Source: a virus. From it: DNA of 64,000 bases. The notes under the pieces were generated by a model. It saw only the letters and a program-made list of their open reading frames with translations. It was not told the origin of the DNA and did not search any database. The stretch is from the UHGV virus genome UHGV-0277313; one strand, 5' to 3'. Shown here piece by piece: positions 24,087 to 64,000 of this stretch; the stretch's first letter is position 1, and every line of letters starts with the position of its first letter. A program made the position numbers and the translations under genes.

Positions 24087-25061
24087 ATGAGTGCTTTAAT
24101 TGAATCATTTAGAAATGCAGTTTATGAAAAACTTGTTGAGATGGGATCAATAACAGTCTTTTCATATGATGACATTGATTTTATTTATGATAAAATTTTT
24201 AAATCATCAGATGAGTTTAAAGATTTGTGTGATGAATATAAAGCAAAGTATCTAAAAGTTTATGAACCTTATTATGATCTTGAAACATTTGATTTAACTA
24301 AAGTAACTCGTGTATTAAAAATTGTAAAGAATGATAGAATAGTGGGGTATGTGACTTTTTATGTTTATGAAAAAGTTAATGCTGAAATTGATTTCTTTAC
24401 TAAAGAGTCCCGTTATAACGAAGCGGTAGAAAAGTTAATCAAAAAACTTAATAAAAACATCTGTGAACAGATTGGGTTAGGTGAAATAGAAAACATATTC
24501 GCAACGTCACATAATCAAAAATCTCATACAGAGTTGTTTGAAAAGTGTTTAGATTTTTATTCCGTTGAATTTTATAAACCTGTTGAAAATCTTAAATTTG
24601 ATGTAAAAGATAAATTGGTTATTTCAAAAAAGGTTGAGGGCACTTACTTTGATTTTATCTTTGATCAAAAAGCCTTTAATTCTGAAAGATTAATCAAAAT
24701 GGATCATGATTTCTTTAAAGATGAACAAAAGAATGCTGGTACAGATTTTAAATACAGAGATCCAAACTATGATGTAACTATTAAAATCGTTGACAGAAAT
24801 AAAGATGTTGACGTTGGTTTCATTGGGCTTAGGATGTTCAATAAAGGAATTGTTACAGTTTCTGTTTATATCGAAAATAAATATCGTGGTTTAGGTTTAT
24901 ATTCTTACTTTATTGATCATTTTAATTTATTTACACGTTTATTTAAACAGGAAATCAATTGGTTGTCGATTTATGTTTATGCTAAAAATAAGACTTCGAT
25001 GAGTGTTCACAATAAACTTTTAGGTGAAGCTAAAATCAAGACTTTCTATAAAGGCATTTAA
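24087..25061 (+). CDS. hypothetical protein with putative C-terminal GNAT acetyltransferase fold
   Basis: 324 aa; VTVSVYIENKYRGLGLYSYF resembles GNAT motif A (R-G-x-G-x); weak. Confidence 0.3.
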   Translation: MSALIESFRNAVYEKLVEMGSITVFSYDDIDFIYDKIFKSSDEFKDLCDEYKAKYLKVYEPYYDLETFDLTKVTRVLKIVKNDRIVGYVTFYVYEKVNAEIDFFTKESRYNEAVEKLIKKLNKNICEQIGLGEIENIFATSHNQKSHTELFEKCLDFYSVEFYKPVENLKFDVKDKLVISKKVEGTYFDFIFDQKAFNSERLIKMDHDFFKDEQKNAGTDFKYRDPNYDVTIKIVDRNKDVDVGFIGLRMFNKGIVTVSVYIENKYRGLGLYSYFIDHFNLFTRLFKQEINWLSIYVYAKNKTSMSVHNKLLGEAKIKTFYKGI

Positions 25062-52789: not shown

Positions 52790-54784
52790 ATGAAGCAAGT
52801 AATAAAACGCGATGGAAAAGAAGTTAAATTTAATTTGAAAAAGATTGTATCGGCTATTCGTAGGGCTGGAGAGTCTTCTGGTGAATTTGGTTATGACGAA
52901 GCTTTAGATTTAACAAATTCAGTAATTCAAATGTTTGATAATAAAGAAAAAGCAACTGTTGAAGAGATTCAAGATGCTGTTGAAAAAGTGTTGAATGAAA
53001 ATAATTACACAAAGACAGCACGCGCTTTTATTGTGTATCGTGAAAAACATAATGATATGAGAAAAGATAATAATGTAATGATTGATGCTGTTCAGTCAAT
53101 TGATGATTATCTTGATCGTTCAGATTGGCGTGTAAACGCTAACGCAAATCAGGGGTATTCTTTAGGTGGTATGATTCTAAATACTTCTGGTAAAGTAACA
53201 GCAAATTATTGGTTGAGCCATGTGTACCCTAAAGAAGCTGGTGAAGCACATCGTAATGGTGATATACAGATTCACGATTTAGATATGTTAGCAAATTATT
53301 GTACTGGATGGTCATTGCGTGCATTGCTTCAGGAAGGCTTTAACGGTGTTAAAGGTAAAGTTGAAAGTAAACCACCAAAACATTTAGCTTCAGCTTTAGG
53401 ACAAATGGTGAATTTTTGGGGTTGTTTACAGAATGAGAATGCAGGTGCACAGGCATTTAGTAGTTTCGACACATATCTTGCACCTTATGTTCGTAATGAT
53501 AAATTGACATACAAACAGGTTTATGATGCTATTCAGGAATTTGTATTTAATGTGAATGTTCCTTCAAGATGGGGAACACAGACGCCTTTTACGAACATTA
53601 CATTAGATTGGACATGTCCGGAAGATTTGAAGGATTCACAACCTATAATTGCTGGTGAAGAGATGGATTATACATATTCTGAACTTCAACCAGAAATGGA
53701 CATGATTAATAAAGCCTTTATTGAAGTCATGATTAAAGGTGATGCACATGGACGTTTATTTACATTTCCTATTCCGACATATAATATTACACCAGACTTC
53801 CCGTGGGAAAGCGAAAATACAAAGTTGTTGTTCGAAATGACGGCAAAGTATGGGTTGCCGTATTTTCAGAATTTCTTGAATTCAGATTTGAAAGTTGGTG
53901 ATGTTAGAAGTATGTGCTGTCGTCTTCAACTTGACTTGCGTGAAATTAAAAAACGCGGTGGCGGTCTATTTGGTTCAGGGGAACAGACAGGTTCAATTGG
54001 TGTTATAACAATTAACTGTGCGCGTTTAGGGTATCTGTTTAAGAATGATATAACAGGTTTATATAAACGTTTAGATGAATTGATGAATATTGCTAGAAAT
54101 GCATTAGAACAAAAAAGAAAGTCATTAAATAAATGGATGGAGCAAGGTTTGTATCCTTATTCTAAACGTTATTTAGGTGGTTACAACACTTTGTTTTCAA
54201 CGATAGGAATTAATGGTGTAAACGAAATGATTCGTAACTTTACAAACGATGAACATGATATCACAGATGACTATGGACAGAAGTTTGCAATGTCTTTAAT
54301 GGATCATATTAATGAGGTGTTAAAACAATTTCAGGTTGAAACTGGTAATTTATACAACTTGGAGGCTACGCCAGGAGAAGGAACTACTTTTAGGTTTGCG
54401 AAAGAAGATAAAAAACGCTATCCTGAAATTATTCAAGCAGGAAAACCTGAAGCACCTTATTATACAAACTCAACACAGATACCTGTTGGGTATACAAATG
54501 ATCCATTTACTGCATTAAATCTGCAGGAAGGTTTGCAGAGACGCTATAGTGGCGGCACAGTTGTACACCTTTACATGGGAGAAGCAATGTCATCATCAGA
54601 TTCTTGCAAGACTTTAGTGAAGCGTGTTCTGGAGAATTATCACATTCCATATTTAACAATTACACCTACGTTCTCGATTTGTCCTAAGCATGGGTATATC
54701 TCAGGTGAACATAAATATTGTCCTATTTGTGATGAAGAGTTAACTTCACCAAAGCAAGAGCAATGTAAAGCTTGTAAGGGTTAA
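52790..54784 (+). CDS. nrdD: anaerobic ribonucleoside-triphosphate reductase NrdD, catalytic core lacking the glycyl-radical loop
   Basis: N-terminal ATP-cone (VIKRDGKEVKFNLKKIVSAIRRA); NrdD blocks GGG(L)FGSGEQTGSIGVITINCARLGY and CCRLQLD; C-terminal zinc ribbon CPKHG...CPICDEE...CKAC; ORF stops at ...QCKACKG*, where NrdDs normally continue R-x-C-G-Y-L-G. Confidence 0.85.
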   Translation: MKQVIKRDGKEVKFNLKKIVSAIRRAGESSGEFGYDEALDLTNSVIQMFDNKEKATVEEIQDAVEKVLNENNYTKTARAFIVYREKHNDMRKDNNVMIDAVQSIDDYLDRSDWRVNANANQGYSLGGMILNTSGKVTANYWLSHVYPKEAGEAHRNGDIQIHDLDMLANYCTGWSLRALLQEGFNGVKGKVESKPPKHLASALGQMVNFWGCLQNENAGAQAFSSFDTYLAPYVRNDKLTYKQVYDAIQEFVFNVNVPSRWGTQTPFTNITLDWTCPEDLKDSQPIIAGEEMDYTYSELQPEMDMINKAFIEVMIKGDAHGRLFTFPIPTYNITPDFPWESENTKLLFEMTAKYGLPYFQNFLNSDLKVGDVRSMCCRLQLDLREIKKRGGGLFGSGEQTGSIGVITINCARLGYLFKNDITGLYKRLDELMNIARNALEQKRKSLNKWMEQGLYPYSKRYLGGYNTLFSTIGINGVNEMIRNFTNDEHDITDDYGQKFAMSLMDHINEVLKQFQVETGNLYNLEATPGEGTTFRFAKEDKKRYPEIIQAGKPEAPYYTNSTQIPVGYTNDPFTALNLQEGLQRRYSGGTVVHLYMGEAMSSSDSCKTLVKRVLENYHIPYLTITPTFSICPKHGYISGEHKYCPICDEELTSPKQEQCKACKG

Positions 54785-54790
54785 TGCAAA

Positions 54791-54825
54791 AGGGCGGAAG
54801 TTAAACGCTTCCGCCCTTGTTTTAA
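54791..54825 (+). terminator. intrinsic terminator/attenuator between nrdD and nrdG
   Basis: 10-bp GC-rich stem agggcggaag/cttccgccct (54791-54800/54808-54817), 7-nt loop, then TGTTTTA. Confidence 0.6.
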
Positions 54826-54839
54826 AGAAAGGAATTAAA

Positions 54840-55535
54840 ATGATTTTGGGTGGAATACAGCCATTTACAACAATAGATTATCCAAATAAATTAGCAGCGG
54901 TTTTCTTTTCAAAGGGATGTCCTTTAAGGTGTCCTTATTGTCAAAATCCATCATTGCAACAAGTATCTAATAAATCGGATCTTGCATGGTCTATTGCAGA
55001 ACAATTTATGAAGTCTAGAAAAGGGTTGCTTGATGCCGTCGTATTTTCAGGAGGTGAACCATTAATTCAATATGATTTAAAAGAAGCAATGTTATATGCG
55101 AAAGAAAATGGTTTTTTGGTAGGATTACATACATCTGGAGTGTCATTGTCAGCATTTGAAAGAGTTATATCTGTTGTTGATTGGGTTGGTTTAGATGTTA
55201 AGACTTGTTTTGATTTATACAATGAAAGATTAGGGTGTTCTGGAAATATTCAAACAGAACAGTGTTTGGATCTATTGTTAAAGTTAAACAAAGATTTTGA
55301 AGTTCGAACAACATTGGATCCACGTGTCATTAGTGTTGATGAATTAATGTGTTTAGCAAAGTGTTTAAGTAATAAAGGTGTAAAGACATTTGCTATTCAA
55401 GAATATCATGCTTTTCCTGAAGCTAAAGAAATACCTGATGCAATACAAACGAAGGCTTATTTTAAAGATGATGTTCTTAAAAAGATAGAATGTTTATTTG
55501 AGAATTTTATTGTACGTAGAAGTGGTGGTATTTAA
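54840..55535 (+). CDS. nrdG: anaerobic RNR activating enzyme NrdG (radical SAM)
   Basis: GCPLRCPYCQNP (CxxxCxxC radical-SAM cluster motif) near the N-terminus; GGEPL SAM-binding motif; 231 aa, longer than typical NrdG. Confidence 0.8.
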   Translation: MILGGIQPFTTIDYPNKLAAVFFSKGCPLRCPYCQNPSLQQVSNKSDLAWSIAEQFMKSRKGLLDAVVFSGGEPLIQYDLKEAMLYAKENGFLVGLHTSGVSLSAFERVISVVDWVGLDVKTCFDLYNERLGCSGNIQTEQCLDLLLKLNKDFEVRTTLDPRVISVDELMCLAKCLSNKGVKTFAIQEYHAFPEAKEIPDAIQTKAYFKDDVLKKIECLFENFIVRRSGGI

Positions 55536-59963: not shown

Positions 59964-60020
59964 AACCCGTGTCAATAACAAATCACTATAATTAATTCGT
60001 TATCAACACGGGTTTCTTTT
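59964..60020 (-). terminator. terminator downstream of the minus-strand glycyl-radical gene
   Basis: imperfect 17-bp hairpin gaacccgtgtcaataac/gttatcaacacgggttt (59964-59980/59999-60015) with U-runs on both strands. Confidence 0.5.
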
Positions 60021-60025
60021 GTTTT

Positions 60026-61097
60026 TTATTCAGCAGCAATTGCTGAAACTTCCGTATGTTTGAAAGCAATATTTTCTTTGAAGTATTTGCGTTCTTCAAA
60101 TTCTGATTTCTTTCCAACATTGAAGTTTTCGTATGGACGGAAATACTTAATCGACTATTACTTCAGATTTATCTGTTGTTTCGTTTAGTCTGTCAAGGTA
60201 GCTTCTAGCAATACCATAATTTCTTTGTAATAGGTATCGAGGTTTGCCGTCGTACATAAAGTTAATAAGTTTCAGGCATTCAGATTGATTAAAACGTAAT
60301 CTAAACAGTTTACCGTTTGTAACAATCTTTTTTGTTTCATTTATTACTTTATGTCTTACTAAAATACTTTTTACATTTTTTAGTACAGGCATGTAACCAA
60401 TAATTTCTGCAAACAGATGGTTGTTATGTAAACCGTCATAATAAAAAGAACCGTCGGCATCAAAAAGACCTCTGATAAAATCTTTTGAGATTTCATCTTG
60501 TAACAGGTCTATATGAATATCTCCACGGTCTTTTTTAAGTTTTGTTAATTCATAGCGTTTTAAAGCTTTATGCAACTTCCAGCTTCGAATTTCAAAACCA
60601 CATGATGGGTATTTATTTTTAGCAAGGAAACGTTTAATCGGTTTATCACTACCAATAAAATTTCTAAAATTGGTTAATAAATTTATATCCTTTTCAGCAC
60701 AACATATTCTGATTTTATTTTCTGTTGTACAGTTTCCTTCACCGTATAAATAACCAATCCAATATGCAGATTCATGATTTATACAATCAAACACTTGTTC
60801 ATTAAGTGTATATTTTCGTTTGTTCATTTTTACATCCTTTCGGATAAGTCTTCCGACTTGAGCTTTCCTCATCGTTACTTTAATGTTTAATTAAAGCTTT
60901 CGATTATTATTAGAAACAATTTTATTTGGGCTATTTCACTTATGCGCACCCATGACGCGGGTCCATACTTCTGTTAACTGATGTTTATTGCCATCTTTCA
61001 TAGTGACAATTTGTTCAGTTTCATCGTAGTCTTCAATTTCATTGAAATCTTTGACTCCCTTTAGGCGCAACAACGCCATCTTTTTTTCATTTAACAT
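60026..61097 (-). CDS. small glycyl-radical subunit completing NrdD (GrcA-like), split by a group I intron
   Basis: exon 1 (61097-60948, RBS GGAG) encodes MLNEKKMALLRLKGVKDFNEIEDYDETEQIVTMKDGNKHQLTEVWTRVMG; exon 2 (60145-60029, stop 60028-60026) encodes YFRPYENFNVGKKSEFEERKYFKENIAFKHTEVSAIAAE; the junction recreates RVMG-YF, the glycyl-radical signature, and the tail parallels E. coli NrdD ...RTCGYLGNPNERGFNLGKNKE...; unspliced exon 1 would read ...RVMGAHK*. Confidence 0.6.
60146..60947 (-). mobile_element. putative group I intron (802 nt) carrying a LAGLIDADG homing-endonuclease ORF
   Basis: 5' exon ends ...AUGGGU; intron begins GCGCAUAAGUGAAAUAGCCCA; GCCCA (60931-60927) pairs with exon UGGGU (P1, U.G at the splice site); adjacent AAUA (60935-60932) pairs with the first 3'-exon bases UAUU (P10); last intron nucleotide is G (60146); core P3-P9 not verified. 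Confidence 0.5.
60147..60872 (-). CDS. LAGLIDADG-family homing endonuclease (intron-encoded)
   Basis: two LAGLIDADG motifs (YWIGYLYGEGNC and IRGLFDADGSF); alternative start MNKRKY at 60827 with AAGGA RBS; its stop abuts the intron 3' end. Confidence 0.75.
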   Translation of the reverse strand: MRKAQVGRLIRKDVKMNKRKYTLNEQVFDCINHESAYWIGYLYGEGNCTTENKIRICCAEKDINLLTNFRNFIGSDKPIKRFLAKNKYPSCGFEIRSWKLHKALKRYELTKLKKDRGDIHIDLLQDEISKDFIRGLFDADGSFYYDGLHNNHLFAEIIGYMPVLKNVKSILVRHKVINETKKIVTNGKLFRLRFNQSECLKLINFMYDGKPRYLLQRNYGIARSYLDRLNETTDKSEVIVD

Positions 61098-61905: not shown

Positions 61906-64000
61906 CTATTCTTCACGTTTACCATAAAAACCGTTGCCGACAAAATACTTGCTTTTGAAATCCATATTTGGGCAAGGATCTTCAAATTCAAGCTTCAGTG
62001 AAATAAGTTGTGTCGGGACTTCAATAGGTAACTCTTCACGTTCTTCTGGAGGGATAGGGTCACCTTCTTTCATCTCAAGTATTTTGTAGTCGTATGCTTC
62101 ATCAAGTTCACGTTTTAAATAATCCCAATTGCAGTTGCCTCCCTTGATATTTAAAATGAATTTACCATCCTTCTCTTCAAAAGATTTAATATCCATTTCA
62201 CGTCCCCATGATTGACCTAAACCAAAATCAATGAACATTTTGTTTCCGTTCATCCAATCATAAATAACATTTGGTACCGTACCTGCATGAAATTGACAAA
62301 TCTTAAAAACTGGAATTAATTCACCTGGGTATATGTCAAGATATGTTGAATCATGAACACCACCAATCATTACTGATTGTAAATCGTGCATCAACATCTC
62401 TTCTGCAATATGTGTACCTGCAATCCATGCCATACGGCTAGCGGATGAATTGTGTACAAAAACACCAGCTTCTAATGCGAAATTGTGTGTATTTTCATTG
62501 TTTTCAACTTCAATATCATATACTGAAATTTTGTTTGGTAGTTTAATTACTTCAACAGATGTAACTTTATGGTTGTTGAATAATTCTGCTACTAAACGTT
62601 CATAATTTTCTTTTGAAAAGTGCGGAACACTTGAAGCTCTAGCTCCTTCATTAATATAAGACAATCTGTATTCTTCAAAAATATTTTCGAAAGAAGAATC
62701 TAGTAATATATTTTTACCAAGTTTTTCAATAATTTTTAAAGAAAGTTTTTTGAACTTATAAAAAGTTGTATTCTTTCCACATTTTCTGATATTATTTTTC
62801 ATATGCTGTATCTTTTCTAGATCATTACCTTTCCAAATTTTATTTATTGTTTTTCTGGCAGATTCAGACAATTGTTCTTTAGACATACAGAATGCATTTC
62901 CATATGTTTCAATGCGTTTTTTTACCAAAGCTTTAACTGCTTCTCTTTGGTTAAAATCCCAATCTTTATAAAGTTCTTTTCTTTTTTTATTTTTTTCAGC
63001 CATTAATTTAGATTGTTTTTCAGAATGTTCTTGTGTTAAAAAATGTTTCCAAATATTGTTTTCACGTTTGCCTTCTCGTATTTCACGTACACGTTTTTGA
63101 GTGTCAATACTACGTTGTTTTGAAGTATATTTCAAACCCATTTGACGTAAATATTCGTGAACAGATACACCTGTCAGGTCAGCATGTCTTTTAATAGTAG
63201 ACATTACAAGAGATGAATGATATTTTATATGTTCTGCCTTATCCATAATAAGTAAATTATCAGGGTTGTTGTTTAATTTGTTGAAATCTTTGTGATGTAC
63301 TGCTTCATTTTTTTCAATAGTACGATCATAATATTTACTTACTATACGATGTACAGAGGCCCAAGGTTTTGTAGTTAAATCATTTCTTTTAACATATTTA
63401 TACCCTAACTTGTCATATTTTGTATAACAAGGCATTAAGCTTTCATTATTTTTTAAATCGATAGCATGTTTATATGTTCCATCCCTTAACATAAACTGGT
63501 GTTCAGGTGTGCATGTAATAATTTCGCCAGAATCTAATGTAACTTTACAAATTGTGTCAGTTTCTCCAGATTTAAAAGCGTTAATAATTTTGCCAGGTAT
63601 AATTTTACCATCATTACAACAAGATAAAACATACTTATTTTCAAAATTATTCACAAGGTTTTGAATTTCAACAACACTGCCATCTAATAAAGGTATTTTA
63701 GTATCACCAACAAAACATTGGATCCCACTATTCTGGCTTGCATTCATAGCATGATTCAACAACTTCCTGTTGCTTTTAGTGTCAGGCAACATTGCATCTG
63801 GTAACGGTCTAGTACAACCAAATACGTCAACAATATATCCATGCTCACGGGCGAACTTGTGTTGATATTCAACGTATGTTTTAATACCAGGGTATGCCCC
63901 CATCATTTTATCAATAGTTTCTTGAGCTTCTTCGACAGTGCATCCCCACTCTTTTGAAAAGTTGTAGGCTGATTTTCCATAGAGTAGACCAAACATTGTT
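61906..64000 (-). CDS. family A DNA polymerase, C-terminal piece (O-helix/motif B and motif C), intein-containing; 5' end beyond the window
   Basis: MFGLLYGKSAYNFSKEWG = Pol I motif B (NFGxxYG); then ...NASQNSGIQ [intein] SSASRMAWIAGTHIAEEM...GGVHDSTY (motif C, VHDE-like); the reading frame stays open to the window edge. Confidence 0.7.
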   Translation of the reverse strand, partial: TMFGLLYGKSAYNFSKEWGCTVEEAQETIDKMMGAYPGIKTYVEYQHKFAREHGYIVDVFGCTRPLPDAMLPDTKSNRKLLNHAMNASQNSGIQCFVGDTKIPLLDGSVVEIQNLVNNFENKYVLSCCNDGKIIPGKIINAFKSGETDTICKVTLDSGEIITCTPEHQFMLRDGTYKHAIDLKNNESLMPCYTKYDKLGYKYVKRNDLTTKPWASVHRIVSKYYDRTIEKNEAVHHKDFNKLNNNPDNLLIMDKAEHIKYHSSLVMSTIKRHADLTGVSVHEYLRQMGLKYTSKQRSIDTQKRVREIREGKRENNIWKHFLTQEHSEKQSKLMAEKNKKRKELYKDWDFNQREAVKALVKKRIETYGNAFCMSKEQLSESARKTINKIWKGNDLEKIQHMKNNIRKCGKNTTFYKFKKLSLKIIEKLGKNILLDSSFENIFEEYRLSYINEGARASSVPHFSKENYERLVAELFNNHKVTSVEVIKLPNKISVYDIEVENNENTHNFALEAGVFVHNSSASRMAWIAGTHIAEEMLMHDLQSVMIGGVHDSTYLDIYPGELIPVFKICQFHAGTVPNVIYDWMNGNKMFIDFGLGQSWGREMDIKSFEEKDGKFILNIKGGNCNWDYLKRELDEAYDYKILEMKEGDPIPPEEREELPIEVPTQLISLKLEFEDPCPNMDFKSKYFVGNGFYGKREE
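62449..63717 (-). mobile_element. intein (423 aa) with HNH homing-endonuclease domain inside the DNA polymerase
   Basis: starts CFVGDTKIPLLDG (block A, Cys1), TCTPEHQFML (block B TxxH), HNH domain AVHHKDFNKLNNNPDNLLIMDKAEHIKYH, ends ...VYDIEVENNENTHNFALEAGVFVHN followed by +1 Ser; precisely in-frame between conserved pol motifs. Confidence 0.7.

Follow-up and report, generated by a model that had tools for sequence, protein, structure and literature searches.

Glycyl-radical enzymes carry the radical glycine on the catalytic polypeptide in the literature surveyed here, in which the sole autonomous radical domain mentioned is GrcA/YfiD. A June 2026 review describes spare-part proteins as known only for formate lyases and lists spare parts for other glycyl-radical enzymes as an open question (PMC13450708). 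Among class III (anaerobic) ribonucleotide reductases, solved structures of the catalytic protein NrdD include those of T. maritima (4COI), P. copri (8P23), S. thermophilus (9D3X) and phage T4 (1H78), and the radical domain of such proteins has been described as a rigid but mobile unit composed of a zinc site, a buried glycine loop and a surface tail (PMC11226230). A ribonucleotide reductase in two pieces is known from class II: NrdJa and NrdJb of Pseudomonas aeruginosa, in which a functional module of the C-terminus has a gene to itself (PMC5704485, PMC9669993). The locus analysed here lies in a 64,000-nucleotide (nt) stretch of virus genome UHGV-0277313, hereafter the window, which is held in the phage genome IMGVR_UViG_3300013426_000013 (313,762 bp, G+C 31%). 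The class III reductase gene of this phage, nrdD-large, lacks the glycyl-radical loop, and a small gene on the opposite strand encodes a protein that matches the missing segment. We consider it highly probable that the catalytic component of this enzyme is made of two polypeptides. No description of a split NrdD was found in the full-text literature searched, most subscription journals lying outside that scope, so an earlier description is possible; as far as that search reached, an NrdD divided in this way is undescribed.

The large gene, nrdD-large, occupies positions 52790-54784 on the plus strand and encodes a class III catalytic body of 664 amino acids (aa) that ends in CPICDEELTSPKQEQCKACKG. 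It scores above the curated cut-offs of NF006126 (1108 bits, cut-off 548) and TIGR02487 (476 bits, cut-off 326). An ATP-cone covers residues 3-88 (52796-53053; PF03477, 71 bits) and is followed by the ten-stranded barrel (53141-54736; PF13597 NRDD core, 580 bits, cut-off 26.2). Within the barrel, the finger-loop cysteines Cys376 and Cys377 (53915-53920) lie in an SMCCRL motif at residues 374-379, which aligns with CCRL of T. maritima NrdD, and further motifs are GGGLFG (residues 390-395) and TINCARLGY (residues 407-415). The predicted zinc ribbon, CPKH...CPIC (54680-54730; C631-x2-H634...C644-x2-C647), can be aligned with its counterparts in P. copri and T. maritima NrdD, and the histidine in place of the second ribbon cysteine is a trait of the whole subfamily. 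All three profile matches end early, at positions 2-529 of 562 for PF13597, 2-549 of 581 for TIGR02487 and 2-655 of 684 for NF006126, which leaves about 30 positions (30-33) unmatched at the profile ends. Because the matches stop short of the profile ends, the glycyl-radical loop is absent from nrdD-large. No RVxG[YF] loop C-terminal to the ribbon occurs in the nrdD-large open reading frame (ORF) or in any downstream frame, and across the whole window the pattern R[VIT]xG[YFW] is found only at 24336 and 24683, neither of which lies in NrdD-like sequence.

A small gene on the minus strand (61097-60026), 5-6 kb from nrdD-large, has a predicted spliced product of 89 aa. Its exon 1 (60948-61097, codons 1-50) encodes MLNEKK...LTEVWTRVMG and closes with GGT at 60950-60948, the codon of the radical glycine G50, and its exon 2 (60026-60145) encodes YFRPYENFNVGKKSEFEERKYFKENIAFKHTEVSAIAAE followed by a stop codon and is collinear with an intron-less homolog. 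Read without splicing, the gene yields a 53-aa ORF (61097-60936) in which LTEVWTRVMG runs into AHK and a stop codon, and the frame resumes 802 nt on, at 60145-60026, with YFRPYENFNVGKKSEFEERKYF and ends in AAE; products consisting of exon 1 only (P0004 and P0008) have been called in other assemblies. Over its full length, the spliced product shares 82% identity with P0001, a protein of 89 aa whose gene is uninterrupted, and the joined exon DNA aligns without gaps to the P0001 gene in the intron-less locus L007. It matches PF13597 at positions 528-562 of 562 (31.1 bits, cut-off 26.2), TIGR02487 at 550-579 of 581 and NF006126 at 649-683 of 684. The small protein thus covers the positions that nrdD-large misses, and the two products tile three NrdD profiles end to end. 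It supplies the beta-hairpin with the radical glycine (...EVWTRVMG50YFRP...) and a C-terminal GKKSEFxxR segment, and TRVMGY and GKK, together with a few other positions, are invariant in 38 aligned small proteins. Both genes are under purifying selection, with ratios of nonsynonymous to synonymous substitution (dN/dS) of 0.095 for nrdD-large, relative to a 74%-identical phage homolog in locus L090, and 0.083 for the small gene, relative to L007. Searches of the Protein Data Bank (PDB) with the small protein sequence and with its profile gave no match, NCBIfam has no dedicated family for it, and a Pfam scan (E<=1) returned only PF13597 and no glycyl-radical domain of the pyruvate formate-lyase (PFL) type. 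These observations bear out most of an earlier sequence-only reading of the window, which had listed the NrdD hallmarks (ATP-cone, GGG..GS..TINCARLGY block, finger-loop CC and zinc ribbon), had seen no downstream frame with RVxGY, had held that the subunit cannot carry the radical alone and had placed the missing piece about 6 kb away on the opposite strand. The alignment to TIGR02487 and PF13597 that it proposed leaves the radical-loop positions unmatched in 52790-54784.

That reading had also put the end of nrdD-large exactly at the radical glycine. The loop is indeed absent, but the protein does not stop at that glycine, because a tail of 17 residues follows the ribbon. NrdD profile homology ends at residue 649-653, and the last 11-17 residues (DEELTSPKQEQCKACKG, 54731-54781) are specific to split-type NrdDs, whose large subunits share a conserved tail of the form DEEL-x3-K-x2-Q-C-x(1-2)-C. 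The final residue is G or C among strains 99-100% identical to the phage NrdD, and more distant homologs end in ND, CK, CS, GD or CAC. The terminal Gly664 was considered as a radical site and ruled out, since the residue is polymorphic and has no RVxG context. In fused NrdDs aligned with the phage protein, the ribbon reaches E-V-[YW]-[ST]-R-V-x-G-Y within 3-5 residues. On this alignment, the break falls just 3' of the zinc ribbon, and an extension has been added to each of the two pieces. Relative to the radical domain of solved NrdDs, the break as predicted from sequence lies inside the domain, with the ribbon staying on the large subunit and the loop and tail forming the small subunit.

The closest one-piece counterparts are fused NrdDs of the NF006126/PRK08270 type from Schaalia, Actinomyces and Mobiluncus, which are 56-68% identical to the phage large subunit. 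Like the phage pair, they have an ATP-cone, barrel, finger loop, C-x2-H/C...C-x2-C ribbon and EVWTRVMGYFRP loop. They differ in that the ribbon runs straight into the radical loop (...CEKCAAAHPHAEPQACEVWTRVMGY...), whereas in the phage a stop codon, the large-piece tail and the small-piece leader intervene, and in that they are one polypeptide whereas the phage pieces lie on opposite strands. Some fused NrdDs (P0251, P0259, P0280, P0282, P0288, P0316, P0341 and P0351) have an extra 90-125 aa or so after the radical loop (...APTLVV...), which looks thioredoxin- or glutaredoxin-like by eye. The NrdJa-NrdJb pair belongs to another class, and its separate module is a cysteine-rich zinc-finger reductant shuttle rather than a radical carrier. 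The nearest functional parallel is with GrcA/YfiD of E. coli and Y06I of phage T4, which, like the phage small protein, are stand-alone small carriers of a glycyl-radical loop. The likeness extends to presumed activation by a cognate radical S-adenosylmethionine (SAM) activase, to likely action in trans with a large barrel and to the existence of a phage-encoded version. The PFL that GrcA rescues normally bears a fused radical domain, whereas the phage large NrdD never has one, so that the small protein would be obligatory. GrcA also belongs to another sequence family, whereas the phage small protein matches the NrdD C-terminus (PF13597), and by these matches the resemblance is one of function and not of homology.

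Split NrdDs extend well beyond this phage. The radical loop is absent in all 120 of the 120 best homologs of the large subunit, and these include proteins of 684-689 aa from gut Alphaproteobacteria, the closest cellular NrdD homologs, at 68-70% identity. On gut alphaproteobacterial contigs of 380-670 kb, a 688-aa nrdD is followed by a 50-nt spacer, a 63-aa radical-loop ORF (...ERQPCEVWTRVMGYFRPVSEFNIGKKSEY...) and nrdG; the spacer has stops in all frames and the small ORF is equipped with a ribosome-binding site and an ATG of its own. A scan of GTDB with one genome per species yielded 80 loci, comprising 47 split operons, 22 fused genes, 10 orphan small genes and one copy of this phage. The split operons, mostly from Proteobacteria, have spacers of -4 to 219 nt and small ORFs mostly of 57-79 aa, and occur in gut Alphaproteobacteria, Sutterella, Castellaniella, Pusillimonas, Massilia, Duganella, Janthinobacterium, Herminiimonas, Undibacterium, Aquabacterium, Polaromonas, Acidithiobacillus ferrianus, Stenotrophomonas, Martelella and Pleomorphomonas. 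The fused loci are mostly from Actinomycetota (e.g., Schaalia, Actinomyces and Mobiluncus), and one that was counted as fused (L046) looks split by an in-frame stop. Among the best 150 representatives of clusters at 50% identity, 79 end 0-44 aa past the ribbon without a loop, although truncated contigs may account for some of the very short endings; a further 58 are fused and 13 are unscorable. Judged by these genes, a large clade of class III reductases, both cellular and viral, is natively built in this way. In a collection of GenBank phages, nucleotide searches with the nrdD-nrdG and small-gene regions and tblastn with the small protein gave no match, and the bacterial-type small protein found only fused NrdDs; no cultured phage in that collection shows a split NrdD. 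A 175-kb contig of this phage (L010) is binned in a public metagenome-assembled genome labelled 'Erysipelotrichaceae', a placement probably due to faulty binning.

The small gene is interrupted directly 3' of the radical-glycine codon by an 802-nt intron (60146-60947, minus strand) that carries an endonuclease gene. The 5' splice site follows U60948 and the last intron base is G60146; the exons meet as ...AUGGGU and UAUUUC..., and the intron ends in UUAAG. A guide at intron nt 11-21 (60937-60927; 5'-GAAAUA/GCCCA-3') pairs with the first 6 nt of exon 2 (UAUUUC, P10) and with the last 5 nt of exon 1 (UGGGU, P1, with a U·G wobble). Hand-drawn core candidates are P3 (GUUUC/GAAAC), P4 (AUCG/CGAU), P5 (GCUUUAAU/AUUAAAGU), P7 (GACUA/UAGUC) and P8 (CAGA-UAAA-UCUG), the last two at 60190-60153. 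The minimum-energy fold of the intron minus the ORF reaches -29.2 kcal/mol, compared with -18.3 +/- 3.4 for shuffled sequences, and recovers P4, P5, P7 and P8. These features point to a provisional assignment of the intron and its core to the group I type; weak Rfam matches to miRNA, snoRNA and HrrF were rejected as chance matches on hairpins. The intron-encoded protein is a putative LAGLIDADG-type homing endonuclease (60147-60827, minus strand) of 226 aa from the ATG at 60827, or 241 aa from an upstream ATG at 60872, and its stop codon abuts the terminal G of the intron. It matches phrog_4645 ('endonuclease') at 103 bits and PF14528 LAGLIDADG_3 at 21.6 bits, just below the cut-off of 22.5, and the motifs YLYGEGNC and LFDADGSF are visible.

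Reductase genes interrupted by mobile elements have precedents in phages. The NrdA of Aeromonas phage Aeh1 is encoded by genes in pieces, and the nrdD of phage T4 (sunY) holds a group I intron; in both, homing-endonuclease-associated elements break the gene at its most conserved codons and function is retained. The phage NrdD split differs in that no mobile element made it: versions without the intron, and those of bacteria, are also split, and the intron lies in the small gene only. It is evidently the most conserved codons of that gene that homing elements have singled out. In strain variants L092-L094 (L092:3001-4950), a second intron, with an HNH_3/NUMOD4 ORF, lies after ...ACT CGT, 9 nt upstream, so that a micro-exon GTT ATG GGT (V-M-G, with the radical glycine) stands between two introns, and the LAGLIDADG intron follows GGT. 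Near-identical strain variants of the nrdD-large protein (P0126-P0140) are 808-1149 aa long and contain at least one intein each (Intein_splicing, LAGLIDADG_3, HNH_3 and Hint-like domains); the window copy has no intein. An ORF at 61906-63996 on the minus strand encodes the C-terminal part of a family-A DNA polymerase broken by an intein with an HNH endonuclease (Intein_splicing, 65.8 bits, residues 102-516; HNH_3, 215-256; DNA_pol_A, 2-87). As called, it starts with an ATG (63996) that lies 5 bases from the window end, but its first residues already match the middle of the polymerase profile (positions 215-300 of 381), so the gene probably begins beyond the window.

The small product is most likely a trans-acting radical subunit activated by NrdG, the radical-SAM activase predicted from the neighbouring gene (231 aa, 54840-55535, plus strand; TIGR02495 (NrdG2), 163 bits, cut-off 131; also PF04055 and PF13353). 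In the mechanism that we propose, the intron would leave the mRNA by group I self-splicing, and NrdG, encoded beside nrdD-large, would take a hydrogen atom from Gly50 of the small subunit. The small subunit would then dock in the barrel like the fused C-terminus of an ordinary NrdD, which would put Gly50 near Cys376/377 and lead to thiyl radical formation. Oxygen would cut the glycyl-radical protein at the glycine, and a spent 10-kDa carrier could be swapped without remaking the 76-kDa body, since a separate small subunit would be replaceable after such cleavage. An AlphaFold2 model of the concatenated pieces, built with an alignment of fused, large-only and small-only rows, favours the two-piece reading (mean predicted local distance difference test score (pLDDT) 79.8; predicted template modelling score (pTM) 0.76). 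It folds the small part into a helix and a beta-hairpin followed by strands at 707-712 and 715-718, with Gly714 (= G50) at the turn or hairpin tip, and the best PDB matches of the model are the class III reductases of S. thermophilus, P. copri, T. maritima and T4.

Several points weigh against a two-piece enzyme of this kind or against parts of the mechanism. Model confidence is moderate over the small part (pLDDT 57-73) and low at the finger loop (52-63), and concatenation itself forces the two pieces close together. The Rfam group I model gives no match to the intron (E<=10), which is why the core assignment is provisional. Bacterial small subunits have a cysteine before EVW (CE[VI]W) and a C-terminal CxC, and the phage small subunit has neither; should a shared metal site hold the bacterial subunits together, those of the phage must bind in some other way. 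A tether through cysteines or zinc between the large tail (CxC or CxxC) and small-subunit cysteines was accordingly rejected as a general feature, because the phage small subunit is cysteine-free. In a closer phage relative (L090), the 10 kb fetched on either side of nrdD contain no small gene, so related phages do not share a conserved position for it. Between nrdD-large and nrdG of that relative (L090:10001-13861) stand a 224-aa ORF and a 79-aa ORF.

The small gene also travels alone. In prophages (L001-L003), a 62-aa version (P0056) sits between lysozyme and integrase genes. In an IMG/VR set of 80 loci with the motif (including L097-L174), for which flanks of up to 10 kb were fetched, 58 of the 80 have a stand-alone small ORF of 55-90 aa with no nrdD-large or nrdG within the flanks, and 15 of the 80 are fused. 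A gene found alone makes sense only if its protein works in trans. These lone copies favour the idea that the phage small subunit mainly serves the split NrdD of the host, as a spare part to re-arm or hijack it, and is not a dedicated partner of the phage enzyme: on most viral contigs neither nrdD nor nrdG is close to the small gene, prophages bear it by itself, and in the window it belongs to another transcription unit than nrdD and nrdG. We regard this as unlikely to be its main role here. The phage large subunit is loop-less and under strong purifying selection, and so needs some partner, and the N-terminal extension of the long-form phage proteins (81-89 aa), which is not in the bacterial forms of about 60 aa, suggests adaptation to a phage partner. 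Moreover, serving the host enzyme and the phage enzyme are not mutually exclusive.

It is very improbable that the truncated NrdD works without a glycyl radical, with NrdG making the cysteine radical directly or the protein having a non-catalytic or regulatory role and the small ORF being an unrelated relic. A 2024 paper reports relatives of glycyl-radical enzymes that lack the canonical glycine (PMC11528403), which lends the idea some precedent. Against it, the small ORF occurs with truncated nrdD and nrdG in 47 species loci, its TRVMGY and GKK motifs do not vary across the 38 small proteins, and its low dN/dS (0.083) is not that of a relic. Post-translational rejoining of the two polypeptides into a full-length NrdD, by a split intein or other protein ligation, is barely credible. 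The phage lineage is rich in inteins, which occur in the NrdD of strain variants and in the PolA of the window, but no Hint or intein profile matches the 17-residue tail or the small-protein N-terminus, the conserved motif of bacterial small proteins is preceded by only some 18 residues, and both pieces are too short and have no Cys/Ser...HN boundary residues. An artefact or a pseudogene (through a frameshift, misassembly or gene decay) has nothing in its favour and can be virtually discounted, because the C-terminus is the same in 13 further protein clusters at 99-100% identity from separate assemblies and is matched in cellular orthologs, which means that the split is not a sequencing error, the motif is in no downstream frame and dN/dS is low. 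A frameshift or readthrough that joins the pieces was likewise ruled out, in the phage by their position on opposite strands and in bacteria by the spacer stops in all frames and the separate ribosome-binding site and ATG.

Two hairpins flank these genes. Downstream of nrdD-large, and ahead of the nrdG start 55 nt 3' of it, a G+C-rich hairpin read from the sequence (54790-54823, plus strand; AAGGGCGGAAG/CTTCCGCCCTT, loop TTAAACG) has an 11-bp stem at 54790-54818 followed by a T-rich tail. The sequence-only reading had placed a GC hairpin and then nrdG here, and both are present. The hairpin is likely a terminator, an attenuator or an mRNA-stabilising element; a consensus terminator scan did not list it, probably because the extended stem takes in part of the T run. 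The same scan found an intrinsic-terminator-like hairpin with a T run at 59966-60012 (minus strand), which closes the radical-loop gene.

The phenomenon is much broader than the sequence-only reading supposed, in that it involves bacteria and many phages and is not peculiar to this one. Annotation has obscured it: an ORF of about 60 aa is missed or called hypothetical, and the large gene is named as though it were complete. In the genome paper of Cupriavidus metallidurans CH34, nrdD and nrdG are Rmet_5137 and Rmet_5139 and the gene between them is unmentioned (PMC2864759), which hints at an overlooked small ORF; Rmet_5138 may be a small radical-loop ORF. The stand-alone small proteins of phages fall in PHROGs family phrog_4132, which is now filed as 'unknown function', and the small gene is a probable phage auxiliary gene. 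We suggest tentatively, with a little less than even confidence, that a large proteobacterial and phage clade has an obligatory, exchangeable 'radical cartridge' of 6-10 kDa that is replaceable after oxygen damage, and that the lone copies in many temperate phages would let these re-arm the host reductase. If true, the reductase would be the first glycyl-radical enzyme that natively consists of two polypeptides, and its cartridge the first spare part beyond pyruvate formate-lyase. Predicted two-piece class III reductases occur in cultured Castellaniella, Janthinobacterium, Massilia, Duganella and Acidithiobacillus, which makes the spare-part question directly testable, and the answer would bear on the upkeep of an oxygen-labile enzyme in facultative or micro-oxic organisms.

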